Counted from the first letter of the stretch, positions 21,387 to 33,232 are shown. The stretch: 64,000 bases of DNA from Candidatus Burarchaeum sp. (GCA_030646255.1 JAUSNF010000021.1:9340-73339), one strand, 5' to 3'. A program made the numbers and translations. The notes: generated by a model not told the origin, from the letters alone.

Positions 21387-23273
21387 TCATGCCTTATCCT
21401 TCAGCTTCAGCCTCGGCAGGATGCCAATGGCCTTAATCTCATCGAGCAGCAGCTTGAATGCATAACTCATCTCGACCTTGTACAGTTCAACGGAATCGCA
21501 GAGCGGGCAGTAGTCGCGCCTCTTTATGAAATCGTGCACGGCAATCATGCCGCACTTGTTGCACACGAGCTCGACAGTCTTGTCGCTCTCCTCCAGCATC
21601 CTCTCGCGCACGAGCATGGATGCGCCATAGCCTATGAGGCAGTCGCGTTCCATCTCTCCGAACCGAAGCCCTCCTTCACGGGCCTTGCCTTCAGTCGGCT
21701 GGTGCGTGAGCAGCTGCACAGGCCCGCGCGAGCGCACGTGCATCTTGTTCGACACAAGGTGGTGCAGGCGCTGGTAGTATATTACGCCGACGAACACCTC
21801 GCTCTCAATGCGCTCGCCGCTCAAACCATCGTAAAGGATTTCCTTGCCATAGCTTTCAAAGCCCTGTTCCTTGAGCGTCTGCTTGAATTCTTCCGCATCC
21901 TGGCCCGAGAATGCAGTTCCATTGACGCGCTCGCCCGTGAAGCACGCGGCCTTGCCTCCCAGCATCTCTATCAGGTGGCCTGCAGTCATGCGCGATGGAA
22001 TGGCGTGCGGGTTGATAATCAAATCAGGCACAATGCCGCTCTCGGTGAATGGCATGTCCTCCTGCGGCACGAGAAGGCCGATGACACCCTTCTGGCCGTG
22101 CCTGCTCGCGAACTTGTCGCCGTTCTCCGGCACCTTTATGCTCCTGACGCGCACCTTCACGAACTTGTTGCCCGACGGGCTCTCGGTAAGCATGACCGAA
22201 TCGACAACGCCCTCATCGCCGCTCTTGATGACCAGCGAGTTCTCCCTCTTCTTCTCTTCAGTCAAACCAAAAGCGCTGACTTCCTCCAAAAATCTCGGCG
22301 GCGAGGTCTTGCCCACGAGCACATCCTTGGACTGCACCTCGCTCTCAGGCACCACTATGCCGTCATCGCCCAGATAGCGGTACATGTACTCTTCGCGGTA
22401 GCCGCTCACCGTCGGGTTCGGACTCTCGAACTTGTCCTTCTGCCCGCCAGGGTAGCGCCTTTCCTCGCTCTCATGCACCTTGAAGAAGACAGACCTGCCG
22501 AGGCCGCGGTCGACTGCGTTCTTGTTCATCACTACCGCATCGCCCATATTGTATCCATAGTAGCTCGTAATCGCGACAACGAAGTTCTGGCCCGCGGGCC
22601 TGCGGTGGAAGTTCATGTGCCTGTATGGCTCGCTCTGCACCAGCGGCTCCTGCGGGTAGTATAATATGTGCGCGCGCGAGTCCATGCGCAGGTTGTAGTT
22701 GCTCGCGTAGAAGCCGAGAGACTGCTTGCTCATTGCGCAGGCCATTGTAATTCTCGGCGAGGAGTTGTGCTCCGGGTAGGTGAGCTGCGAGACTGTTACG
22801 CCGCAGATTGAAACCGGGTCGATTTCCATGTGCGTGCTCTTCTCGGTTATGTGCTTCTCGTCCGCAGCCACAAATGCGATATCGTTCTCTTCCTCGGCGT
22901 CCAAATACTCAATGACGCCCATCTTGATGAGTTCGTTCCACTTGAGCTCGCCGCTCTCAACTTTCTTTACCATTTCAGGAGTGTAAAGCGACTTGCCATT
23001 CTCGACAACTATGTACGGCCTGCGCGCCCGGCCGCTGTCGGTGCTGACTTGCAGTTCTCCGGTCGCGCGGTTGAGCGCAAAATTCACCTCAGGGCTTATC
23101 TCGCCCGCGCGCCTCTTTGCGCGCAGTTCGGCCACGAGCGAATCTCCGTCATCGTGGAATCCGATGAGCCTGCCGTTTATGTAGATGGCGGTCTTGGAAG
23201 GCCTCTCGCCATCCTCTATCTTGCCCGCTACCATTTTCTTGAACATTCTGCTCTTTTTTTTCGCCGGCACCAT
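21387..23273 (-). CDS. rpoB1: RNA polymerase subunit B' (C-terminal half of split RpoB)
   Basis: GDKFASRHGQKGV motif and a C-terminal Zn motif. Confidence 0.95.
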   Translation of the reverse strand: MVPAKKKSRMFKKMVAGKIEDGERPSKTAIYINGRLIGFHDDGDSLVAELRAKRRAGEISPEVNFALNRATGELQVSTDSGRARRPYIVVENGKSLYTPEMVKKVESGELKWNELIKMGVIEYLDAEEENDIAFVAADEKHITEKSTHMEIDPVSICGVTVSQLTYPEHNSSPRITMACAMSKQSLGFYASNYNLRMDSRAHILYYPQEPLVQSEPYRHMNFHRRPAGQNFVVAITSYYGYNMGDAVVMNKNAVDRGLGRSVFFKVHESEERRYPGGQKDKFESPNPTVSGYREEYMYRYLGDDGIVVPESEVQSKDVLVGKTSPPRFLEEVSAFGLTEEKKRENSLVIKSGDEGVVDSVMLTESPSGNKFVKVRVRSIKVPENGDKFASRHGQKGVIGLLVPQEDMPFTESGIVPDLIINPHAIPSRMTAGHLIEMLGGKAACFTGERVNGTAFSGQDAEEFKQTLKEQGFESYGKEILYDGLSGERIESEVFVGVIYYQRLHHLVSNKMHVRSRGPVQLLTHQPTEGKAREGGLRFGEMERDCLIGYGASMLVRERMLEESDKTVELVCNKCGMIAVHDFIKRRDYCPLCDSVELYKVEMSYAFKLLLDEIKAIGILPRLKLKDKA

Positions 23274-23321: not shown

Positions 23322-24896
23322 CTATTTCTTTCCGCCCTTCTCCGCTTTCTCCGGCTTCTCGCTCTTCCCAACTTCCGCAACAGTCATCTCTTCAACCGCC
23401 ATCGGTTCAGCGGCGTGCGAAACATCTTCGATCGCAACTCCGCTGGCCCTCAGCAGTTCCTCAACAGGCTTCTCGCTCTCGCCCGTCGTAATCTCACACA
23501 GCAGTGCCATGTTCTTTACCAGCGCGCAGCTCGGGCCTTCGGGCGACTCGTTCGGGCAGAGCTTGCCCCAGTGCGAGCCGTGCAAGTCGCGGGCCTTGAA
23601 GTGCGGGTGCTTGCGCGAAAGCGGCGAGATGATGCGCCTCAAGTGCGAGACGCTTGAAAGATGGTTCGTGCGGTCGAGCAGCTGCGATACGCCTGTCTGG
23701 CCAGCAATCCAGTTGCCCGTAGCCATTGAGTACCTCATCCTTTCACTCAATGCGTCGGGCCTGACTATTGTCTGAACGACAAGCCTTCTTCCGCGCGCGA
23801 ATGCGCGCTCAACCTGATAAGCAACATCCTTTACGAGGAACTGGAACGCATACCTGAAAAGCTCCTCCATCAAATTGCCTGCGAGCTTAATTCTCTTGTT
23901 CCCATAGAAGTCCTTGTCATCCTCGGGCACCATCTTGTAGGCAACCTTCATTCCCTTCTCAGCCATCTTGCACAAGTAGTATGCCTTAGCGAGCCTGTCG
24001 CCGGGCTCAACGCCCAAGTGCGGCAGCAGGTAAGTGTCAAGCAGGACATCCACGCGCTTTGCGCGGTACTCGCGGGCCTGGCCCGGCGCCACTTTCTTGC
24101 CGATGGCTTCCATTGCCTCCTCGCGGTTCTTGGTCTCATCCACCTCGAGGTTCAATAGGATATCATTCATTATTTCGCTCTTGTCAGAATCCTTGAAAGC
24201 GGCAATTATGTCCTCGTTCTTCTCAAGCCCGAGCGCGCGCAGCGCTGTCGTGAGCCGCATATCCTTGGGTGCGGCCGGGAAGCTCACGTTCACAACGCCC
24301 TCATGGTTTCTTTCCGCAACGCAGCGGGCGCGGAAGCCGAAGCGCATCGAGAAGACCTTCGAGGTCGTGAGCGTGCCGTCCTTCTCGCGCGAAACCATGA
24401 TGCGGTTGGGCGCAAGATCCTCAATCGAAACGAGCACGCGCTCGCTCCCATTAATGATGAAGTAGCCGCCCGGATCCTCGGGATCCTCGCCCTTCTCTAT
24501 GAGCTGCTCGCGGTTCAGGCCCTCAAGGTGGCACAGCTTGGACTTAATCATCACGGGCAGCTCGCCAATGAATACTTCTGGGAAGCCGCGCCTCTCAACG
24601 CCATTCACAATCGGTATAATCTCGAGGAAAATAGGCGTGGCATAATTCAAATCGCGCATGCGCGCCTCCATCGGCGTGATGGGTCGGCGCGAGCCGTCGG
24701 CCTCCATCATCATCGGTTTTTCCTCAATCCTCACCTTTCCGAGCTTGAGCTTGTAGTTCTCAATATTCGGCTCAATCACGCCAACGCGGTCAATGACCTG
24801 CTGGATGCCGAAGGCCACGAACTTGTTGTAGCTCTCAAGGTGCTGGCGCACAAGGGAATTCTGGTGGAAATACGCATCAAGGAGTTCAACAGTCAT
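23322..24896 (-). CDS. rpoB2: RNA polymerase subunit B'' (N-terminal half of split RpoB)
   Basis: 524 aa with N-terminal RpoB homology. Confidence 0.9.
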   Translation of the reverse strand: MTVELLDAYFHQNSLVRQHLESYNKFVAFGIQQVIDRVGVIEPNIENYKLKLGKVRIEEKPMMMEADGSRRPITPMEARMRDLNYATPIFLEIIPIVNGVERRGFPEVFIGELPVMIKSKLCHLEGLNREQLIEKGEDPEDPGGYFIINGSERVLVSIEDLAPNRIMVSREKDGTLTTSKVFSMRFGFRARCVAERNHEGVVNVSFPAAPKDMRLTTALRALGLEKNEDIIAAFKDSDKSEIMNDILLNLEVDETKNREEAMEAIGKKVAPGQAREYRAKRVDVLLDTYLLPHLGVEPGDRLAKAYYLCKMAEKGMKVAYKMVPEDDKDFYGNKRIKLAGNLMEELFRYAFQFLVKDVAYQVERAFARGRRLVVQTIVRPDALSERMRYSMATGNWIAGQTGVSQLLDRTNHLSSVSHLRRIISPLSRKHPHFKARDLHGSHWGKLCPNESPEGPSCALVKNMALLCEITTGESEKPVEELLRASGVAIEDVSHAAEPMAVEEMTVAEVGKSEKPEKAEKGGKK

Positions 24897-25390: not shown

Positions 25391-26134
25391 TTAAAGTTGT
25401 TCACCATATTTATCATAATATCTCTTTATAGCCACGTCCATATTCTCCTCTAATTTGAGCTCTGAAATACGCCTTTTCCCTTCCTTATGATACTCCATGA
25501 TCTCCTTCCATTCATCATCCGTAACTTTATCCGTATTCTCCTCCTTGGGGGTCTCTCCCTTTCCTCCTCCTAAAACCGTTGCGATCCCGCTTATGAGCGG
25601 CTCATTTCCGCTTTCCTCTGTTTTAAACCTGTCCCCAATTGGGTGCTCTTTGTCGTATCTTTTTGTAATTGTCTCCATTGTTTTATCGATAAATCCGAAG
25701 AACTCATTTGTTTTTTTATCCTTAAGCTCCCTTTCCTTCTGCTGCAAATTAAGTGCCTCAAGCTTCAGATTGACACCGTCCAGCTTATGTTGAAGCCAAA
25801 TCAGTTCAGCTATCCAATATTTTTTTGGATTATCCTTTGCATAGATTTTCTTGTTTAGCCGTTCTATTTTATCACTCAACTTCTTGCGCTGCCTCTCCCA
25901 AAGTGCGCAGTTGTAGTCCTCGTTCGGTATCTCCTTCTTGACTAGCGCAGGTCCAAGGTCGTGCAATAGCCTGAAATTGAACGCAATCTGGCTCGGCGAG
26001 AACTTAGTCAACAGCGGGTTCCGAGCCACAGTCCTTGCATCTTTTTGCATGGCATTTCTTGCTCTTTGAAAGCTTAAAAACTTTATAATCATGCTCGCCT
26101 GCAAGCGCGCCTTACTTCTTCTGGTCTTCCTCAA
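25391..26134 (-). CDS. Hypothetical protein encoded in an AT-rich insertion
   Basis: GC markedly below the flanking DNA; charged/coiled-coil composition; no recognisable motif. Confidence 0.4.
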   Translation of the reverse strand: MRKTRRSKARLQASMIIKFLSFQRARNAMQKDARTVARNPLLTKFSPSQIAFNFRLLHDLGPALVKKEIPNEDYNCALWERQRKKLSDKIERLNKKIYAKDNPKKYWIAELIWLQHKLDGVNLKLEALNLQQKERELKDKKTNEFFGFIDKTMETITKRYDKEHPIGDRFKTEESGNEPLISGIATVLGGGKGETPKEENTDKVTDDEWKEIMEYHKEGKRRISELKLEENMDVAIKRYYDKYGEQL

Positions 26135-27587
26135 CGATATTCTTTATCATCTTCTGCAGCTTCAGGCGCTTGGCATCATAGGCCTTCTCTTTCAGGTCCG
26201 CATCCTCAACGTTCTCCTTTATCTCAGCAATCTTTCCGCTTTGGGAGGTCACTTCTGCGGAAACCTCGAGCGCAGTCACTGTCTTAGAAAGCAGTCGCAA
26301 CTGCCTCACAAGCCTGTCCCTTTCAACCTCCAGCTCATCTATCGCACTCACAATGTCCGTCACCTGCTGCCTCTTGCCTATCGCACTCTCATACTTCTCC
26401 ACGCCCTTGGTTGCAATGCTCAGCTGGTCCTCTATCTCCTTCTTGCTCTTGTTCAGCGCATTAGTCATCTCATCTGCCAAATCCCTTATCTGCGTGGCCT
26501 CCTGCCTGAAGTTCAGGTCTGCCTTGGCCAGCTGTGAATCATAATCTGTGACACTCCCGATGAGCTTCTTCTGCGCCCGCAGGAGCTCCTCGTACTTGCT
26601 CTCATGCGTCTCGAGCGCCTTTGTTATGGAGTCGCTGCGGTTCGCGAGCAGCCGGCTCTGCTCCCCTATTTCGCTCTCCAGCCTTTCAATATTCTCCTTC
26701 TCCTTCCTGAGCTTTACAAGATTCTCAGCAACCTCGCCGCTCACGAGCGCATCCTTCATCGTGCCCAGCTTCCGGTCCAGGTCAATAACCCTAAACTGCA
26801 TCTTCTCTACGAGCGCCTCAGCCGCGGCCTTCTCGCCCGCCATCTCCTTGGCAGTCTCCTCCAGCCTGTTCATGGCATCGATGGACTCAGTGAGCGCGCC
26901 CTTCTTGTCCGTGCTCTTCTTGAGCTCCTTCTGCAGAGAGGCCTTCATCTCGGTTATGGCTGCAAGCGTCTCATCCAGCTTCTTCCTCGCCTCGACAATC
27001 TCGCCCGCGCGCGCCTTGAGCTCAGGCGACCTTTCAATCTCCTTCACGCGCTTGTTCATCTCCTCGAGCATCTCGCGCTTCAGCTTGATGTCCCGCTCAA
27101 CAGAATTAACGCTCTCGCGCAAATCGGAAATCCGCGCCATCTTCTCGTTGAAAATCTTCTCCTTGTCCTTGTCCACCGCGTGCAGCGCGTCGAGCCTTGA
27201 CCTCAGCTTCTCGGGCAGCTGCGCATCCAGCACGCCCGCGAGCTCGTTCAGCTCCTTGCGCACCATCTGGAGCTCGCCCTCCTTTGCCTTGGCGCGCTCT
27301 ATCAGCCCGCGTATGTCCCTCGTGAGCGACTCCTTCTGCTCGCCTATCTTCGAAATGCTATCCTTCATCTCCTCCTCGGTCGGGCCCCTCCACACCAGGT
27401 AGACGCGCGTGAGCCTGTATTCTAGCTTCAGCACTTTTTCTTCTTCAAGCAGCTTGGCCCACTCTTCTGCAACCTGCGGGGTCACGCCCAAATTAGCGGC
27501 AGCCTCGCTCAGCTCGAGCCTGCCCCTGTCATGCACTATTCTTATGAGTCCGTCTATGCCAGTTGTAATCGAGCCTTCCTGCACCAT
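26112..27587 (-). CDS. Hypothetical N-terminal wHTH plus ~400-aa coiled-coil protein
   Basis: N-terminal ...LSEAAANLGVTPQVAEEWAKLLEEEKVL... HTH-like, then heptad-rich sequence. Confidence 0.45.
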   Translation of the reverse strand: MVQEGSITTGIDGLIRIVHDRGRLELSEAAANLGVTPQVAEEWAKLLEEEKVLKLEYRLTRVYLVWRGPTEEEMKDSISKIGEQKESLTRDIRGLIERAKAKEGELQMVRKELNELAGVLDAQLPEKLRSRLDALHAVDKDKEKIFNEKMARISDLRESVNSVERDIKLKREMLEEMNKRVKEIERSPELKARAGEIVEARKKLDETLAAITEMKASLQKELKKSTDKKGALTESIDAMNRLEETAKEMAGEKAAAEALVEKMQFRVIDLDRKLGTMKDALVSGEVAENLVKLRKEKENIERLESEIGEQSRLLANRSDSITKALETHESKYEELLRAQKKLIGSVTDYDSQLAKADLNFRQEATQIRDLADEMTNALNKSKKEIEDQLSIATKGVEKYESAIGKRQQVTDIVSAIDELEVERDRLVRQLRLLSKTVTALEVSAEVTSQSGKIAEIKENVEDADLKEKAYDAKRLKLQKMIKNIVEEDQKK

Positions 27588-27896: not shown

Positions 27897-28796
27897 ATGA
27901 CTGAAACCTGTCCCGAATGCAAGAGCAAGAACCTCGTCAAGGACCACGAGAAGGGAGAGATCATCTGCAAGGACTGCGGCCTCATAGTGAGCGAGGAGCT
28001 CGATGCCGGGCCCGAGTGGCGCGCCTTCGACTCCGAGCAGCGCGACAAGCGCGCCCGCGCAGGCGCACCAGTCAAATTCATGAGGCCCAACAAGGGCCTT
28101 GTAACCGAGATTGACCAGTACAACCGCGACATACGCGGGGTGAAGATTTCCTCGCACAAGCAGGCGCAGATGTACCGCATGCGCAAGTGGCACAGGCGCG
28201 CATCAGTGGCCAGCTCAATGGAGCGCAACCTCTCAATAGCGCTGAGCGAGCTCGACCGCATTGCCAGCTATCTAGGCCTTCCTGAGAACATGCGCGAGTC
28301 TGCCGCACTGCTCTACCGGCGATGCGTTGAGCGCGGCCTCATAAGGGGCAGGCTCATCGAGGCTGTGGTGGCTGGCGTAATCTATGCAACTTGCAGGGAA
28401 TACGGCGTGCCGCGCACGCTCGACGAGCTCTCGGCCCAGTCCAACATCGAGAAGAAGGAGATTGGCAGGGCATACAGGCTCATAGCGCGCGAGATGAACC
28501 TCAAGCTGCCACTCACAGACCCCTCGCAGTACGTTCCGCGCCTCTGCTCGTCGCTCAGGCTCAGCGGCAGGACGCAGGAGCGCGCAATTGAGATGACGCA
28601 CAAGGCGCTCAGCGGCTCGCTCATAAGCGGCAGAGGGCCGAGCGGAGTTGCAGCTGCGGCAGTCTACATCGCAGCCTCGCTCGAGGGCGAGAGGCGCACG
28701 CAGAAGGAAGTCTCCGATGTCGCGGGCGTCACGGAAGTGACAATCCGCAATAGATACCGTGAGTTGAAGAAGGCGCTAAACATCAAGGGTGGATAG
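27897..28796 (+). CDS. tfb: Transcription initiation factor TFB
   Basis: N-terminal Zn ribbon CPECKS...CKDCG; cyclin repeats. Confidence 0.95.
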   Translation: MTETCPECKSKNLVKDHEKGEIICKDCGLIVSEELDAGPEWRAFDSEQRDKRARAGAPVKFMRPNKGLVTEIDQYNRDIRGVKISSHKQAQMYRMRKWHRRASVASSMERNLSIALSELDRIASYLGLPENMRESAALLYRRCVERGLIRGRLIEAVVAGVIYATCREYGVPRTLDELSAQSNIEKKEIGRAYRLIAREMNLKLPLTDPSQYVPRLCSSLRLSGRTQERAIEMTHKALSGSLISGRGPSGVAAAAVYIAASLEGERRTQKEVSDVAGVTEVTIRNRYRELKKALNIKGG

Positions 28797-28866
28797 CCGG
28801 CTGCCTTTCGTGCGAAGTTAAAAATATTAGCTAGTGTAAATGAGGAAGGTATCGGGAACTGCACGT

Positions 28867-29043
28867 TCTCGATAACGGGCCGGTAGCTTAGCCTGGTTGG
28901 AGCGCTCGGCTGATAGAGCCAATGGTTTTCCGAGGGAAGGTATCGGAAACCGTAGGTTTCTGATACCGAGAGGTCCTGCGTTCAAGAGCCCTTTTCCGCC
29001 TGAGGGCGCAAAAGCGCTCGCGGAAAATCGCTGAACAAATCGC
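28867..29043 (+). tRNA. tRNA-Ile(GAU) with two introns (28906-28954 at canonical 37/38; ~28976-29028 within the T-loop)
   Basis: Perfect 7-bp acceptor GGGCCGG/CCGGCCC+A; D-arm GCTT/GAGC; spliced anticodon arm CTCGG-CTGATAA-CCGAG plus variable AGGTC; T-stem CTGCG/CGCAG with loop TTCAAAT after removing 53 nt; both introns begin GAGCC; oligo-T follows. Confidence 0.55.
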
Positions 29044-29079
29044 AGCCGGCCCATTCTTTTTCTTTCTTCTAAAATCAGT

Positions 29080-29460
29080 TCACGCCGCATGCACGACAAT
29101 CCCGCCGCGCGGCTGCCTAAGTGCGAACTCAGTGAGCTTCGGAGGCGCAGACTGCGAATAGCTAATATTGCCTTCATTCATCACACTAGAAACAGTTTCC
29201 TGTGTTGAAACAGCAACAGCTGGCTTCTGAACTGGGGCAGCCTCCATCCTCGCAGGCCTCTGCTTGAGCAGCTCAGTCATCCGCATCTCAAGGCCTGCCT
29301 TCTGCTCGGGGCTCATGTTCTTCTGCAGGTTGCCCGCAAGCAGCTGGCGCGCAATATTCTTTATCCTGTACTCAAGGCTCTCTGCCTCGGGCGCCATCTC
29401 CCTAAACTCCTGCTGCGGCCTTCCCTTCTCCTTCATTGTTTCAGCGCCCATATGAACCAT
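29080..29460 (-). CDS. Hypothetical protein
   Basis: ORF only. Confidence 0.3.
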   Translation of the reverse strand: MVHMGAETMKEKGRPQQEFREMAPEAESLEYRIKNIARQLLAGNLQKNMSPEQKAGLEMRMTELLKQRPARMEAAPVQKPAVAVSTQETVSSVMNEGNISYSQSAPPKLTEFALRQPRGGIVVHAA

Positions 29461-30273: not shown

Positions 30274-31122
30274 ATGGTGCTCGAGCACATAATCTCAACC
30301 CAAAGGCTAGAGCGGAGCCCTTACCTCATCCTTTTCATCTCCTTCATCTTTGTCTCCTTCGCAGTATTCCTCACGCACTACTTCTATCCGAACGACCACG
30401 GCATGGTCGTAATTTTGCTCACGATCCTTCCCGCAATCCCATTCTTCCTTAACTTCATACGCACTGAGGAGCAAAGGCACGAGGTTGAAAGCGGGATGCG
30501 GCATAATATTTTCCACATATACAAGCCCCTCATCTCGCTCTACATATTCTTCTTCATCGGCACTGCGCTCAGCTTCGCGTTCTGGGCATCCATACTTCCC
30601 ATCGGGGTTTCAGATTCCATGTTCAGCGAATTGAAAGCAGAGTTATCCCTGGTGCAAGGCGCAGTAACACCTCCTGCGCTGACTTATGCCGGCTCGCCCT
30701 TTGAATTCATACTAACCCGCAACCTGCTGGTGTTCGCCCTCATGATCCTCTTCTCATTCATCTACAGCATCGGCTCAATATTCCTTCTAACTTGGAACGC
30801 CGCGCTGCTCGGCATGTTCATGGAGCAGTCAGTGCGCACCCAGATGCTCCTCATCTCGCAACAGTTCGGCCTCTTCGCCTATCCTGTTGCATTTGTCATG
30901 GGCTCAGTAGCGGGCCTCCTCAGCGTTCTGCCCCACGGCATCTTCGAGCTGAGCGCCTTCTTCATCGCCAGCCTCGCGGGCGGCATCCTGTCGGTCGCGC
31001 TCGAGCGCGGCACCTACAGGCGGCAATGCTTCTGGTGCATCATCCAGGACGCCTCGAAGCTCTTTATTCTGGCGCTGGTGCTGCTCGTGATCGGGGCAGC
31101 GATCGAAGGGCTTTACGCGTGA
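30274..31122 (+). CDS. Multi-pass membrane protein (DUF95/SpoIIM-like)
   Basis: Six or seven TM helices; composition and architecture. Confidence 0.4.
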   Translation: MVLEHIISTQRLERSPYLILFISFIFVSFAVFLTHYFYPNDHGMVVILLTILPAIPFFLNFIRTEEQRHEVESGMRHNIFHIYKPLISLYIFFFIGTALSFAFWASILPIGVSDSMFSELKAELSLVQGAVTPPALTYAGSPFEFILTRNLLVFALMILFSFIYSIGSIFLLTWNAALLGMFMEQSVRTQMLLISQQFGLFAYPVAFVMGSVAGLLSVLPHGIFELSAFFIASLAGGILSVALERGTYRRQCFWCIIQDASKLFILALVLLVIGAAIEGLYA

Positions 31123-31138
31123 AATAAAAAATTAGAAA

Positions 31139-31210
31139 CGCCCCGAGTCGGGTTCGAACCGACGGCCTACTGGTTAACAGCCAGTCGCTCTACCACTGAG
31201 CTATCGGGGC
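31139..31210 (-). tRNA. tRNA-Asn(GUU)
   Basis: Reverse complement folds canonically: GCCCCGA/UCGGGGC acceptor, anticodon loop CUGUUAA, T-loop UUCGAAC; oligo-T downstream. Confidence 0.85.
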
Positions 31211-31368
31211 AAATGGACCAAGGTCCCTTTGCTCAACCTCCTTTTATTTAGCTACGGTTTCTTGCTAGTTTCCCTTTTATTTAGCAAGGTTCCTTGCAGA
31301 CCTCCTTCACCCAACCTCCCTTCGCAGGAAAGGTTCACCCTTCTTTTCCGTCATGCCAAATATATAAA

Positions 31369-31746
31369 TCAAATCCTCGGCCTGCGCAGGTGGTAGTACA
31401 CCGTGCGCAGGGGCAGATGGAGCTTATGCGCAATCTCCGCGGCCGCAAAGCCCTGCCCGTGCAGCTCCTCAATCATCTTCAACTTCTCGCGCGCATGCAC
31501 GTGCGGCCTGCCCCTCTTCACCCTTTCAACCGCAATCTCAACGCCCATCTGCTCGAGCGCGGCAACTGCGCTCCTGGGCAGGCTCCCATATATTGCGGGC
31601 GAGCACATTATGCGCGAAACAGGCGCTTTTTGCATAATCTGCGCTAGAAGAACCGTGCTCACCTTTCTTTTCAGAAGCAGCTCAGGGTCGTGCGCCCTTT
31701 CCACTGCTTCGAGCACCTGCCTGTTGCTTCCCCTTATCTCGAGCAC
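31369..31746 (-). CDS. Putative HTH DNA-binding protein
   Basis: C-terminal AAEIAHKLHLPLRTVYYHL helix-turn-helix; overlaps the upstream ORF by 65 nt so the true start may be internal. Confidence 0.4.
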   Translation of the reverse strand: MLEIRGSNRQVLEAVERAHDPELLLKRKVSTVLLAQIMQKAPVSRIMCSPAIYGSLPRSAVAALEQMGVEIAVERVKRGRPHVHAREKLKMIEELHGQGFAAAEIAHKLHLPLRTVYYHLRRPRI

Positions 31747-33232
31747 CTTTCACCAGCTCCATGAACTTCTTCGCCCTTTCTCCGCCCGACAGCAGCGCCT
31801 CCACCTTTCCGCGCGCCTCGTACAGCTCGTCCTCTCCAACGCGGAAGAACTCCGCGCACCATTTCTCCTTTTTCTCGCTCCTCATCAAGAAGAGCGCAGC
31901 TCCGAACAAATCTCCCTTTATGCCAGCAGAAAGCGGCTCGCTGTCAATCTTCTCGAGCAGCAGCGCGCCCGCATCCGTCACACCCAACGCCCTGCTCACA
32001 GGCCCGAACATGCGCACCTGCTTCAGGCTCAAGGATGCGGACAAAGTTGGAAATATCGGCGCGCTCTCGCGCTTGCGCACAGGCGTGCTCATGTAGTACC
32101 TGAAGAGGTCGAGCGCAAGCGCCTCGGAAGCCGTGCGCGCGGCACTTGCCTTCAGCCACTTCCGCCTCTCCTCCACAGCATCAGCCAAGCCCTCGCCGAG
32201 CACATACCCTTCCTTGCCCTTGGCAGCCAGCCCTTTCTCAGCCAGCTGCTCCATTATCCTGAAATACTTGTCATCGTCATCCTCGAGCGCATTCAAATCC
32301 GCCATTCCATTCTTGGAAAGCACTTCGACATAGCCGGACAGCTTGCTATTCTTCCGGAGCTCAGCATCGAACTCCTGCGCAGCTTTTGCAGATGCAAGCG
32401 CGGAATAGGCGCTCGCCACGCAGGCGCGCACGCCTTTGCTCCGAACTAGCGAATCCTGGGCAGTCCGCACCTCAGTGGAAACCACGCGCGCCGCCGCACC
32501 ATAGGCGCGCCTCACGCGCTCCTCAATCTTCTGGTCGCTCAGCAGCCTTATCTTCTCCTGCACCTTCTTGCCGCCCACATCGCGCTCAATGGTCACGAGC
32601 ACGCTCCTCTCAAGCTCGCTTCCAGCAGCCGCAAGAGTTTCCAAAAGAACCGAGTATGCATGCACAGCATGCTCGCCGTGCTTAACAAGCTGCGCTATGT
32701 AATTGCCGCCGAGCGGCAGCGTCTTCAGCGCCTCGCTCCCGCCCCGCTCAAGCAGCCTGGCCGCAATCTTGTTCGCAGCAATCGCCACCATGAGCCTGTT
32801 CAGCGTGAACTTCTTGGCGTTCGCCAAATCTTTCATCTTGCGCAGCTGCTTCTTCAAATCAGAAAGCTCCGCTTCCTCCAGCTCCTCGGACTTCTTGGCA
32901 TCGCCCGCGCCGGTGAACGGAGTGCTGAACCCGCCCGCGCGCATCTCCTCCTTGAACCTCTCAAGCTCGTCAATGGTCTGAAGCGCCTCATCCACGCGCG
33001 CGGGCTCGGCTATCGCATCCATGAACTTGTTGGCCTGCGCAATCAGGCTGGCCGATGAGCTCGTTTCAAGCATTTTCCCACAACGGTAAAATTGTTGTAA
33101 AAGTAAGTTATATAATGGTTTTATAAAGGGGGGACGGCATAATGACCTACTATTCCTAAAGGTGCGCGCAATGCTGTTTAGACAAGTGCCAATCATTCCT
33201 CCTGAGCACCGCCCGCTCGCAAGGGCGGTCAA
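31682..33232 (-). CDS. Hypothetical alpha-helical protein
   Basis: Long ORF; probable start at the internal MLETSSS... Confidence 0.4.
   Translation of the reverse strand: MTALASGRCSGGMIGTCLNSIARTFRNSRSLCRPPFIKPLYNLLLQQFYRCGKMLETSSSASLIAQANKFMDAIAEPARVDEALQTIDELERFKEEMRAGGFSTPFTGAGDAKKSEELEEAELSDLKKQLRKMKDLANAKKFTLNRLMVAIAANKIAARLLERGGSEALKTLPLGGNYIAQLVKHGEHAVHAYSVLLETLAAAGSELERSVLVTIERDVGGKKVQEKIRLLSDQKIEERVRRAYGAAARVVSTEVRTAQDSLVRSKGVRACVASAYSALASAKAAQEFDAELRKNSKLSGYVEVLSKNGMADLNALEDDDDKYFRIMEQLAEKGLAAKGKEGYVLGEGLADAVEERRKWLKASAARTASEALALDLFRYYMSTPVRKRESAPIFPTLSASLSLKQVRMFGPVSRALGVTDAGALLLEKIDSEPLSAGIKGDLFGAALFLMRSEKKEKWCAEFFRVGEDELYEARGKVEALLSGGERAKKFMELVKGARDKGKQQAGARSSGKGARP

Follow-up and report, generated by a model that had tools for sequence, protein, structure and literature searches.

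A probable tRNA-Ile(GAU) gene with two introns, one of them in the T-loop, in a Burarchaeum genome (Micrarchaeota)

Highly disrupted tRNA genes whose introns are cut by a splicing endonuclease (EndA) of the ε2 type were described by Fujishima et al. (2011) from ARMAN-2, Candidatus Micrarchaeum acidiphilum (PMC3239211). Examples include a 59/60 intron in pre-tRNA-Cys, two introns near the T-loop in pre-tRNA-Pro(GGG), and a 37/38 intron in pre-tRNA-Ile(UAU) (PMC3239211), and the hosts on record for multi-intron or T-loop-intron tRNAs include both ARMAN-1 and ARMAN-2 (PMC3239211, PMC4033280). The ARMAN-2 enzyme cleaves strict as well as relaxed bulge-helix-bulge (BHB) motifs, that of a T-loop intron included (PMC3239211; structure in PMC12397907). 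In Thermoproteales and other Crenarchaeota, up to three BHB introns are found per gene (PMC4033280, PMC4090602). Multi-intron and T-loop-intron tRNAs, along with an ε2 EndA, were already described for ARMAN-2 in 2011, and the rarity that an initial annotation of the locus reported here had implied for such genes was overstated, given the hosts on record.

Here we describe a tRNA-Ile(GAU) gene interrupted at 37/38 and, within the T-loop, most probably at 58/59, located in a 64-kb stretch of archaeal DNA (the window, which in what follows means the whole stretch analysed). The locus resembles ARMAN-2 in that it comes from the same phylum, carries short and apparently protein-spliced introns at 37/38 and in the T-loop with more than one intron per gene, and fits a relaxed motif of the hBH/HBh' type at the non-canonical site. 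It differs in its order (Burarchaeales), in the tRNA concerned, in its combination of sites (37/38 and 58/59, as opposed to 53/54 and 59/60 in ARMAN-2), and in the mismatched helix H of intron 1, whereas the motif of ARMAN-2 tRNA-Ile(UAU) is strict. Multiple BHB introns, non-canonical positions and relaxed motifs are likewise shared with Thermoproteales and other Crenarchaeota possessing an (αβ)2 EndA (Sugahara, Fujishima), as is rapid intron gain and loss between related genomes; however, these lineages are unrelated to Burarchaeum and their intron families span many tRNA genes, whereas the present analysis covers one locus, with no further copies seen in 64 kb.

The host was identified through the TFB gene that precedes the tRNA gene. 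The TFB protein matches an NCBI protein of Candidatus Burarchaeum sp. at 100% identity and its counterpart in Ca. Burarchaeum australiense LFW-281_7 at 93%, and these identities place the window in the Micrarchaeota, order Burarchaeales (DPANN; PMC8561730). Comparisons were made with six other assemblies in which synteny from TFB to tRNA-Ile is kept (L005, L001 = L051, L057, L052, L053, and L054). Features of the locus and of its surroundings are listed in Table 1.

Table 1. Features in and around the tRNA-Ile(GAU) gene, in window coordinates unless another assembly is named.
Feature	Coordinates	Strand	Basis or remark
RNA polymerase subunit B'' (rpoB split)	23322-24896	-	near tRNA-Ile gene
491-aa coiled-coil protein	26112-27587	-	no family match
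TFB gene (Pfam TFIIB, Zn_Ribbon_TF)	27897-28796		ends 80 nt upstream of tRNA-Ile gene
TATA-box-like element TTAAAAATATTA	28818-28829	+	sequence reading; ~50 nt upstream of tRNA position 1
5' leader with 10-bp hairpin (stem 28850-28859 / 28865-28874)	28844-28876	+	folding, direct repeat, covariance model
Exon 1, 39 nt, positions 1-37	28877-28915	+	ARAGORN on spliced sequence
Intron 1, 49 nt, canonical 37/38	28916-28964	+	register analysis, ARAGORN -i, orthologues
Conserved block in intron 1, GGTTTTCCGAGGGAAGGTATCGGAAACCGTAGGTTTCTGAT	28924-28964	+	alignment with L005, L057
Exon 2, 21 nt, positions 38-58	28965-28985	+	ARAGORN, orthologues
Intron 2, 53 nt, T-loop, best register 58/59	28986-29038	+	register scan, folds
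Exon 3, 15 nt, positions 59-73	29039-29053	+	sequence reading, ARAGORN
T-rich tract TTCTTTTTCTTTCTTCT	29054-29070	+	sequence reading
SpoIIM-like membrane protein	30274-31122	+	
DUF530 protein	31682-33232	-	
Block/leader copies, L005	3955-3986, 4047-4083		
Block/leader copies, L057	1233-1269		

When both inserts are removed in silico, ARAGORN reads 28877-29053 (+) as a tRNA-Ile(GAU) of 75 nt, CCA excluded. The initial annotation had placed the gene at 28867-29043, which is off by 10 nt, the true span lying further right, and had given 73 nt for the product. Its reading of the mature molecule otherwise agrees with the sequence: the acceptor stem GGGCCGG/CCGGCCC with A73, the anticodon arm CUCGG-CUGAUAA-CCGAG, the variable loop AGGUC, and the T-arm CUGCG-UUCAAAU-CGCAG can all be read there, as can GAGCC in the first bases of both inserts. 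The identity that it proposed is borne out both by the ARAGORN call on the spliced form and by the contiguous orthologue in L052, which scores 67.9 bits with the Rfam tRNA model RF00005. All 21 stem pairs of the spliced cloverleaf are standard. Exon 1 supplies the acceptor 5' strand, the D-arm, the 5' strand of the anticodon stem, and C32-A37 including the anticodon GAU, and has 0 or 1 mismatch with L005, L001, L052, and L057. Exon 2 contributes the 3' strand of the anticodon stem, the variable loop, the T-stem 5' strand and U54-A58, and exon 3 provides A59, U60, the 3' strands of the T-stem and acceptor stem, and the discriminator; CCA is unencoded.

Orthologous loci carry two, one or no introns. 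Two-intron genes are present in L057 (TFB 84% identical to the window; both introns 46 nt) and L001 (87%), where intron 1 is present and the contig ends inside an intron 2 that begins after TTCAA. Intron 1 alone interrupts the genes of L005 (93%; 50 nt), L053 (79%; 54 nt), and L054 (79%; 38 nt), and L052 (84%) has neither intron. Homologues of intron 1 thus occupy the same site, at 38-54 nt, in every comparison assembly except L052, where the site is empty, and exons 2 and 3 are joined without a gap in L005, L052, L053, and L054. Where intron 2 occurs (window, L057, and L001), it shares the 3' ending GAACAA. Since the two-intron form is found in three independent assemblies, an assembly artefact is ruled out. 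A metagenome scan with an exon 1 pattern returned solely the L001 contig.

These orthologues also fix the extent of the inserts. Excision of 49 nt at 37/38, as initially proposed, is the sole cut that matches the orthologous mature sequence and alone reproduces the product of the intron-less orthologue; a CTGATA repeat was considered as a source of ambiguity at this junction and ruled out, as only the 37/38 cut fits. The T-loop insert, estimated earlier at ~53 nt, is confirmed at 53 nt, with 58/59 as the best register and with four orthologous genes lacking it.

When the spliced sequences are aligned, standard pairs fill 99% of the stem cells, and double compensatory changes are seen at four pairs, namely 31:39, whose partners flank intron 1, and 49:65, 50:64, and 52:62, which span the site of intron 2. 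The window, for example, has the T-stem CUGCG/CGCAG and L057 has GAGAG/CUCUC, and intron 2 interrupts both genes. Compensatory changes across introns imply that selection worked on the exons as joined while the intron was in place, and a chance resemblance to a tRNA is thereby excluded. For both introns, therefore, exact absence in orthologues is found together with selection on the joined exons, the combination by which we recognize BHB introns. As a separate observation, departures from Watson-Crick pairing among the spliced orthologues are confined to U50.U64 in L054 (3107-3219) and G7.U66 in L005 (3991-4115).

This bears on whether the locus could instead be a dead tRNA gene, broken by two insertions and yielding no functional tRNA. 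Failure of standard detectors on the locus and the imperfect BHB motifs (both treated below) would be in keeping with such decay; against it, the exons are intact, the intron-interrupted stems show the compensatory changes described above, and the promoter box and T-tract are retained in orthologues, AGTTAAAAATATT of the TATA-like element being kept in L005, L001, and L057. Moreover, three lineages with nearly saturated neutral sites maintain the two-intron state, and no second tRNA-Ile was found in the 64 kb. DPANN genomes of ~1.2 Mb normally have one gene per anticodon, which also counts against the loss of this one. We consider a dead gene very improbable, and 28877-29053 very probably represents a functional tRNA-Ile(GAU) gene from which EndA removes introns at 37/38 and at T-loop position 58/59.

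When mapped on TFB similarity, intron 1 looks ancestral and would have been lost in L052. Since the window, L001, and L057 share intron 2, which L005 and L052 lack, at least two precise losses, or else repeated gains, have to be assumed. The L052 gene equals the in-silico spliced L057 gene base for base. L057 (1181-1347, two introns) and L052 (1801-1875, none) have TFB genes that are 87% identical and the same tRNA-Ile exons; an exact spliced product is what intron loss through recombination with a mature-tRNA copy would be expected to leave. A comparable case is the tRNA-Thr(GGU) of Caldiarchaeum subterraneum, in which one- and two-intron orthologues also occur among close relatives (Sugahara et al. 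2012, PMC3293823). In Caldiarchaeum the heterogeneity is linked with a 1.8-kb element that encodes a recombinase and with a scattered fragment of a tRNA (PMC3293823), whereas no recombinase, mobile-element gene or tRNA fragment was seen adjoining the Burarchaeum locus.

The 5-bp anticodon stem serves as helix h of the intron 1 splice motif, with bulges U36-A37|G and A-U|A38 in the window. Helix H is formed by 28910-28913 with 28959-28962 (C32-G, U33.U, G34-C, A35-U), and helix h' by 28917-28920 with 28955-28958 (AGCC/GGUU), which extends as a rod. Across the six genomes with intron 1, the motif has an h of 5 bp, 3-nt bulges UA|N and AY|A, and three of four pairs in H, the U33.U/C mismatch being present in all six. 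Helix h' measures 4-13 bp in four of the six; the rod of the window, L053, L054, and L001 shows many compensatory substitutions in the junction register, and an indel in L005 breaks this register after four pairs. L057 is without h', so that its intron 1 5' site lies in an internal loop. The BHB conformer of intron 1 is 0.3-8.7 kcal/mol above the best fold that keeps the anticodon stem (4.6 in the window), and in the window it is 6.6 kcal/mol above the local minimum-energy fold. Read from sequence, the motif fits a relaxed rather than a strict BHB. The pairing of intronic UAUCGG with CUGAUA of the anticodon loop, initially put forward as the basis of the motif, does exist; it is not the BHB helix, as H uses UCUG at 28959-28962 against C32-A35.

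The junction of intron 2 is ambiguous by sequence, from 55/56 to 58/59, and 58/59 is the only register in this range that combines four of four pairs in H, a 3-nt 5' bulge and an h'. Here helix H pairs 28980-28983 (G53-U54-U55-C56) with GAAC at 29033-29036, the 5' bulge is A57-A58|G, and h' joins 28987-28989 to 29030-29032 (AGC/GCU) over 3 bp, followed by a rod of 8 bp and 6 bp. The 3' site of the window's intron 2 lies in a 5-nt bulge, with no h in the strict register (HBh' type). In L057, cleavage at 58/59 would act on a near-strict motif, with H at 4/4, an h of 4 bp and both bulges of 3 nt; the 4-bp h and the 3-nt 3' bulge are owed to its repetitive T-stem. The intron 2 BHB fold costs 1.4 kcal/mol relative to the local minimum-energy fold. 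Motifs of this quality are frequent by chance. The global minimum-energy fold computed for the window precursor contains helix H.

Excision one position further on, at 59/60, would leave G59 and give the T-loop UUCAAGU in place of UUCAAAU. This is the commonest non-canonical site. The T-loop introns of ARMAN-2 are located there (PMC3239211), and in this register the intact 5-bp T-stem acts as helix h, an H of 5 bp forms with the bulge A58-G-A in an alternative fold, and the two products are identical in L057, where the first base of intron 2 is A. Two observations weigh against it: only one of four H pairs forms at 59/60 in either the window or L057, as compared with all four in both at 58/59, and every orthologue without intron 2 has A59 (TTCAAAT). 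We regard cleavage at 59/60 as unlikely and retain 58/59.

It is important to note how little BHB geometry discriminates. When a 237-nt stretch was scanned exhaustively, 149 pairs of junctions reached H >= 3 and h' >= 3; with this many chance-level candidates, BHB geometry alone is weak evidence, and comparative evidence was relied on instead. The initial expectation that both junctions would be BHB-compatible therefore holds at most in part: in the window both junctions fit relaxed motifs and neither fits a strict one, and the geometry by itself is unspecific.

By analogy with the archaeal pathway, transcription would start from the TATA-like box, whose promoter role we infer from archaeal promoter architecture, would include a leader of ~30 nt, and would stop in the T-tract after 29053, which is likely an archaeal transcription terminator. 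EndA would then cut out 49 nt at 37/38 and 53 nt at 58/59 at the relaxed BHB motifs, an RtcB-type ligase would join exons of 39, 21, and 15 nt into a 75-nt tRNA, and the leader would be trimmed and CCA added afterwards. The splicing, the enzymes, the cleavage and the transcript ends in this scheme are what we infer from that pathway and from the ε2 EndA of ARMAN-2. We also considered whether EndA might take off the leader at a BHB formed between leader and trailer or between leader and acceptor, and rejected this, as inspection found no in-register complementarity. With both junctions relaxed, a host EndA of broad specificity would be expected, for example one of the ε2 type as in ARMAN-2, and by that analogy an enzyme of broadened specificity is plausible. 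Endonucleases able to cut relaxed motifs are of the ε2 type, or of the (αβ)2 type if they carry a specific loop. A six-frame translation of the window gave no EndA homologue with phmmer at E <= 10, and a database search with the catalytic unit of ARMAN-2 EndA returned 47 matches, none attributable to Burarchaeum.

Alternatively, the inserts might be self-splicing group I or group II introns, or fragments of mobile elements, rather than EndA substrates. One report places group I introns in archaea (PMC6125680); however, 49 and 53 nt are far too short, Rfam searches at E <= 10 give only chance matches of microRNA-like type, and no other copies are found in the window or in viral contigs. The probability of this explanation is negligible, and removal by EndA remains the preferred reading.

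The exon-level conservation of a block in the 3' part of intron 1, together with a copy of it in the leader, is the one non-routine feature of the locus. The block (Table 1) is identical at 40 of 41 positions to both L005 and L057, which match each other at 40/40, and four-fold degenerate sites of the adjoining TFB gene are 46-60% identical, which is near saturation. Around the block, the first 6-10 nt of intron 1 are unalignable, exon 2 differs at 4 of 21 positions, and intron 2 is identical at 33 of 53. Two mutually exclusive folds are available to it. In one, GGUUUCCGA pairs with UCGGAAACC to form the BHB-compatible rod; in the other, GGUAUCGGAAAC pairs with GUUUCUGAUACC in a hairpin of 12-13 bp (-19.5 kcal/mol, z -6.2; 12-bp stem 28939-28950 / 28956-28967), which in the modelled structure would hide the 3' splice site of intron 1 together with the 3' strand of H.

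The hairpin recurs in the leader as a direct repeat (D1), in which leader positions 28844-28877 match the intron 1 3' hairpin over 34 nt at 76% identity. The window's leader hairpin scores 43.3 bits with a covariance model (R1) and folds at -12.3 kcal/mol (z -3.7), and in L005 leader and intron copies are identical at 32 of 32 positions, the match ending exactly at the last base of the intron. The leader hairpin is present, with covarying pairs, in the window, L005, L057, L001, and also intron-less L052; all eight hairpin copies fold as hairpins, with some covariation. It is missing from the outgroups L053 and L054, where leaders are shorter, and this absence suggests that copying went from intron to leader. 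Model R1 found no further copies in the 64 kb, and IMG/VR viral contigs gave no match to the element. L001 and L053 carry a second type of intron 1 with the same architecture, and the distribution of the two types departs from the TFB tree.

A 3' part of intron 1 that nearly copies the 5' leader raises the question of whether two separately transcribed pieces are joined in trans, with the intron 1 hairpin as the leader of the 3' half. In work on the tri-split tRNA of Caldivirga by Fujishima and colleagues in 2009, the leaders of split halves are reported to resemble introns at the same position in related Crenarchaeota, and the clear similarity of leader and intron sequences is shared with Burarchaeum. 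The Burarchaeum leader, however, belongs to the same unsplit gene, where it lies ahead of exon 1 and not of the 3' half; it is itself a hairpin, unlike the Caldivirga leader strand, which is complementary to the partner transcript. Intron 1 has no TATA-like or AT-rich box upstream of the hairpin copy, the exons on its two sides are colinear with 49 nt between them, and its rod runs continuously from both junctions, with covariation. Nor is a split or permuted arrangement seen in the gene as a whole, the three exons being colinear within 177 nt with one TATA-like box upstream. Expression in separate pieces is, in our estimation, extremely unlikely, and a single colinear transcript is preferred.

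Candidate explanations for the conservation of the block include a switch masking the 3' splice site, binding of a protein, a function of the intron RNA once excised, and gene conversion or intron mobility. Only tentatively would we suggest that it is a functional RNA element (a bistable switch, an excised circular intron RNA or a protein-binding hairpin) that was copied into the leader; we hold this more doubtful than probable. A box C/D sRNA was considered both for intron 1 and for 29130-29190 of the minus strand and was rejected, the boxes being unconserved and without an Rfam match. A conserved box C is absent from intron 1 of the window, L005, and L057, with CUGA found at the intron 3' end only, and no Rfam C/D family matches the tRNA-Ile gene at E <= 10.

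The prediction that automated annotation would overlook the gene proved correct for ARAGORN and Rfam. On the 64-kb window, ARAGORN with default settings and Rfam at the gathering threshold both report a single tRNA, tRNA-Asn(GUU) at 31138-31211, and when Rfam is relaxed to E <= 10 a tRNA match at the tRNA-Ile locus is still absent. Both tools succeed after splicing or on intron-poorer orthologues: if intron 2 alone is removed, ARAGORN -i recovers the gene with a 49-nt anticodon-loop intron, and with RF00005 one-intron genes score 47-55 bits and two-intron genes go undetected, compared with the score of intron-less L052 given above. No other tRNA-Ile was found within 64 kb by ARAGORN or by a scan for acceptor stems and D-arms, which returned tRNA-Ile and tRNA-Asn only. 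A tRNA-Gly(GCC) called by ARAGORN -i at 21621-21767 (+), with a 72-nt intron at 29/30, was judged a probable false positive on account of its D-loop of 3-4 nt, its odd variable region and the lack of support from the acceptor/D-arm scan.

Two further observations concern the surroundings of the gene. The tRNA-Asn(GUU) gene, on the minus strand, is intron-less (76.6 bits with Rfam), and its leader (31212-31245) has a small terminal hairpin, GGAC-CUUG-GUCC, directly ahead of position 1; its sequence bears no relation to that of the hairpin in the tRNA-Ile leader. The promoter and leader-start region of the tRNA-Ile gene, 28823-28849 (AATATTAGCTA and CTAGTGTAAATGAGGAAGG), has an inverted, rearranged copy at 29159-29189, ~100 nt past the tRNA, comprising 11 nt that are perfect and 19 nt at 74%. 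This copy sits in the 3' part of a small convergent ORF, 29080-29460 (-); weak homologues of the ORF occupy the corresponding position in L052 and L053.

The gene is required for decoding AUC and AUU, and since Rfam and ARAGORN miss it, such tools would undercount the tRNAs of this genome. In the published genome of Ca. Burarchaeum australiense, 18 tRNA types are given at 96.8% completeness (PMC8561730), a number consistent with overlooked genes. With this locus, the micrarchaeal record of T-loop and multi-intron tRNAs reaches beyond ARMAN-2 and comes to include a second order, and relatives with two, one or no introns form a small natural series in which intron gain and loss can be studied. 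If the conserved block does act as a switch, alternate masking and exposure of the 3' splice site would pace or control maturation of tRNA-Ile(GAU), and the gene so controlled may be the single such gene of the cell; under any of these functional readings of the block, the leader copy would testify to mobility of the intron sequence, as DNA or as RNA.
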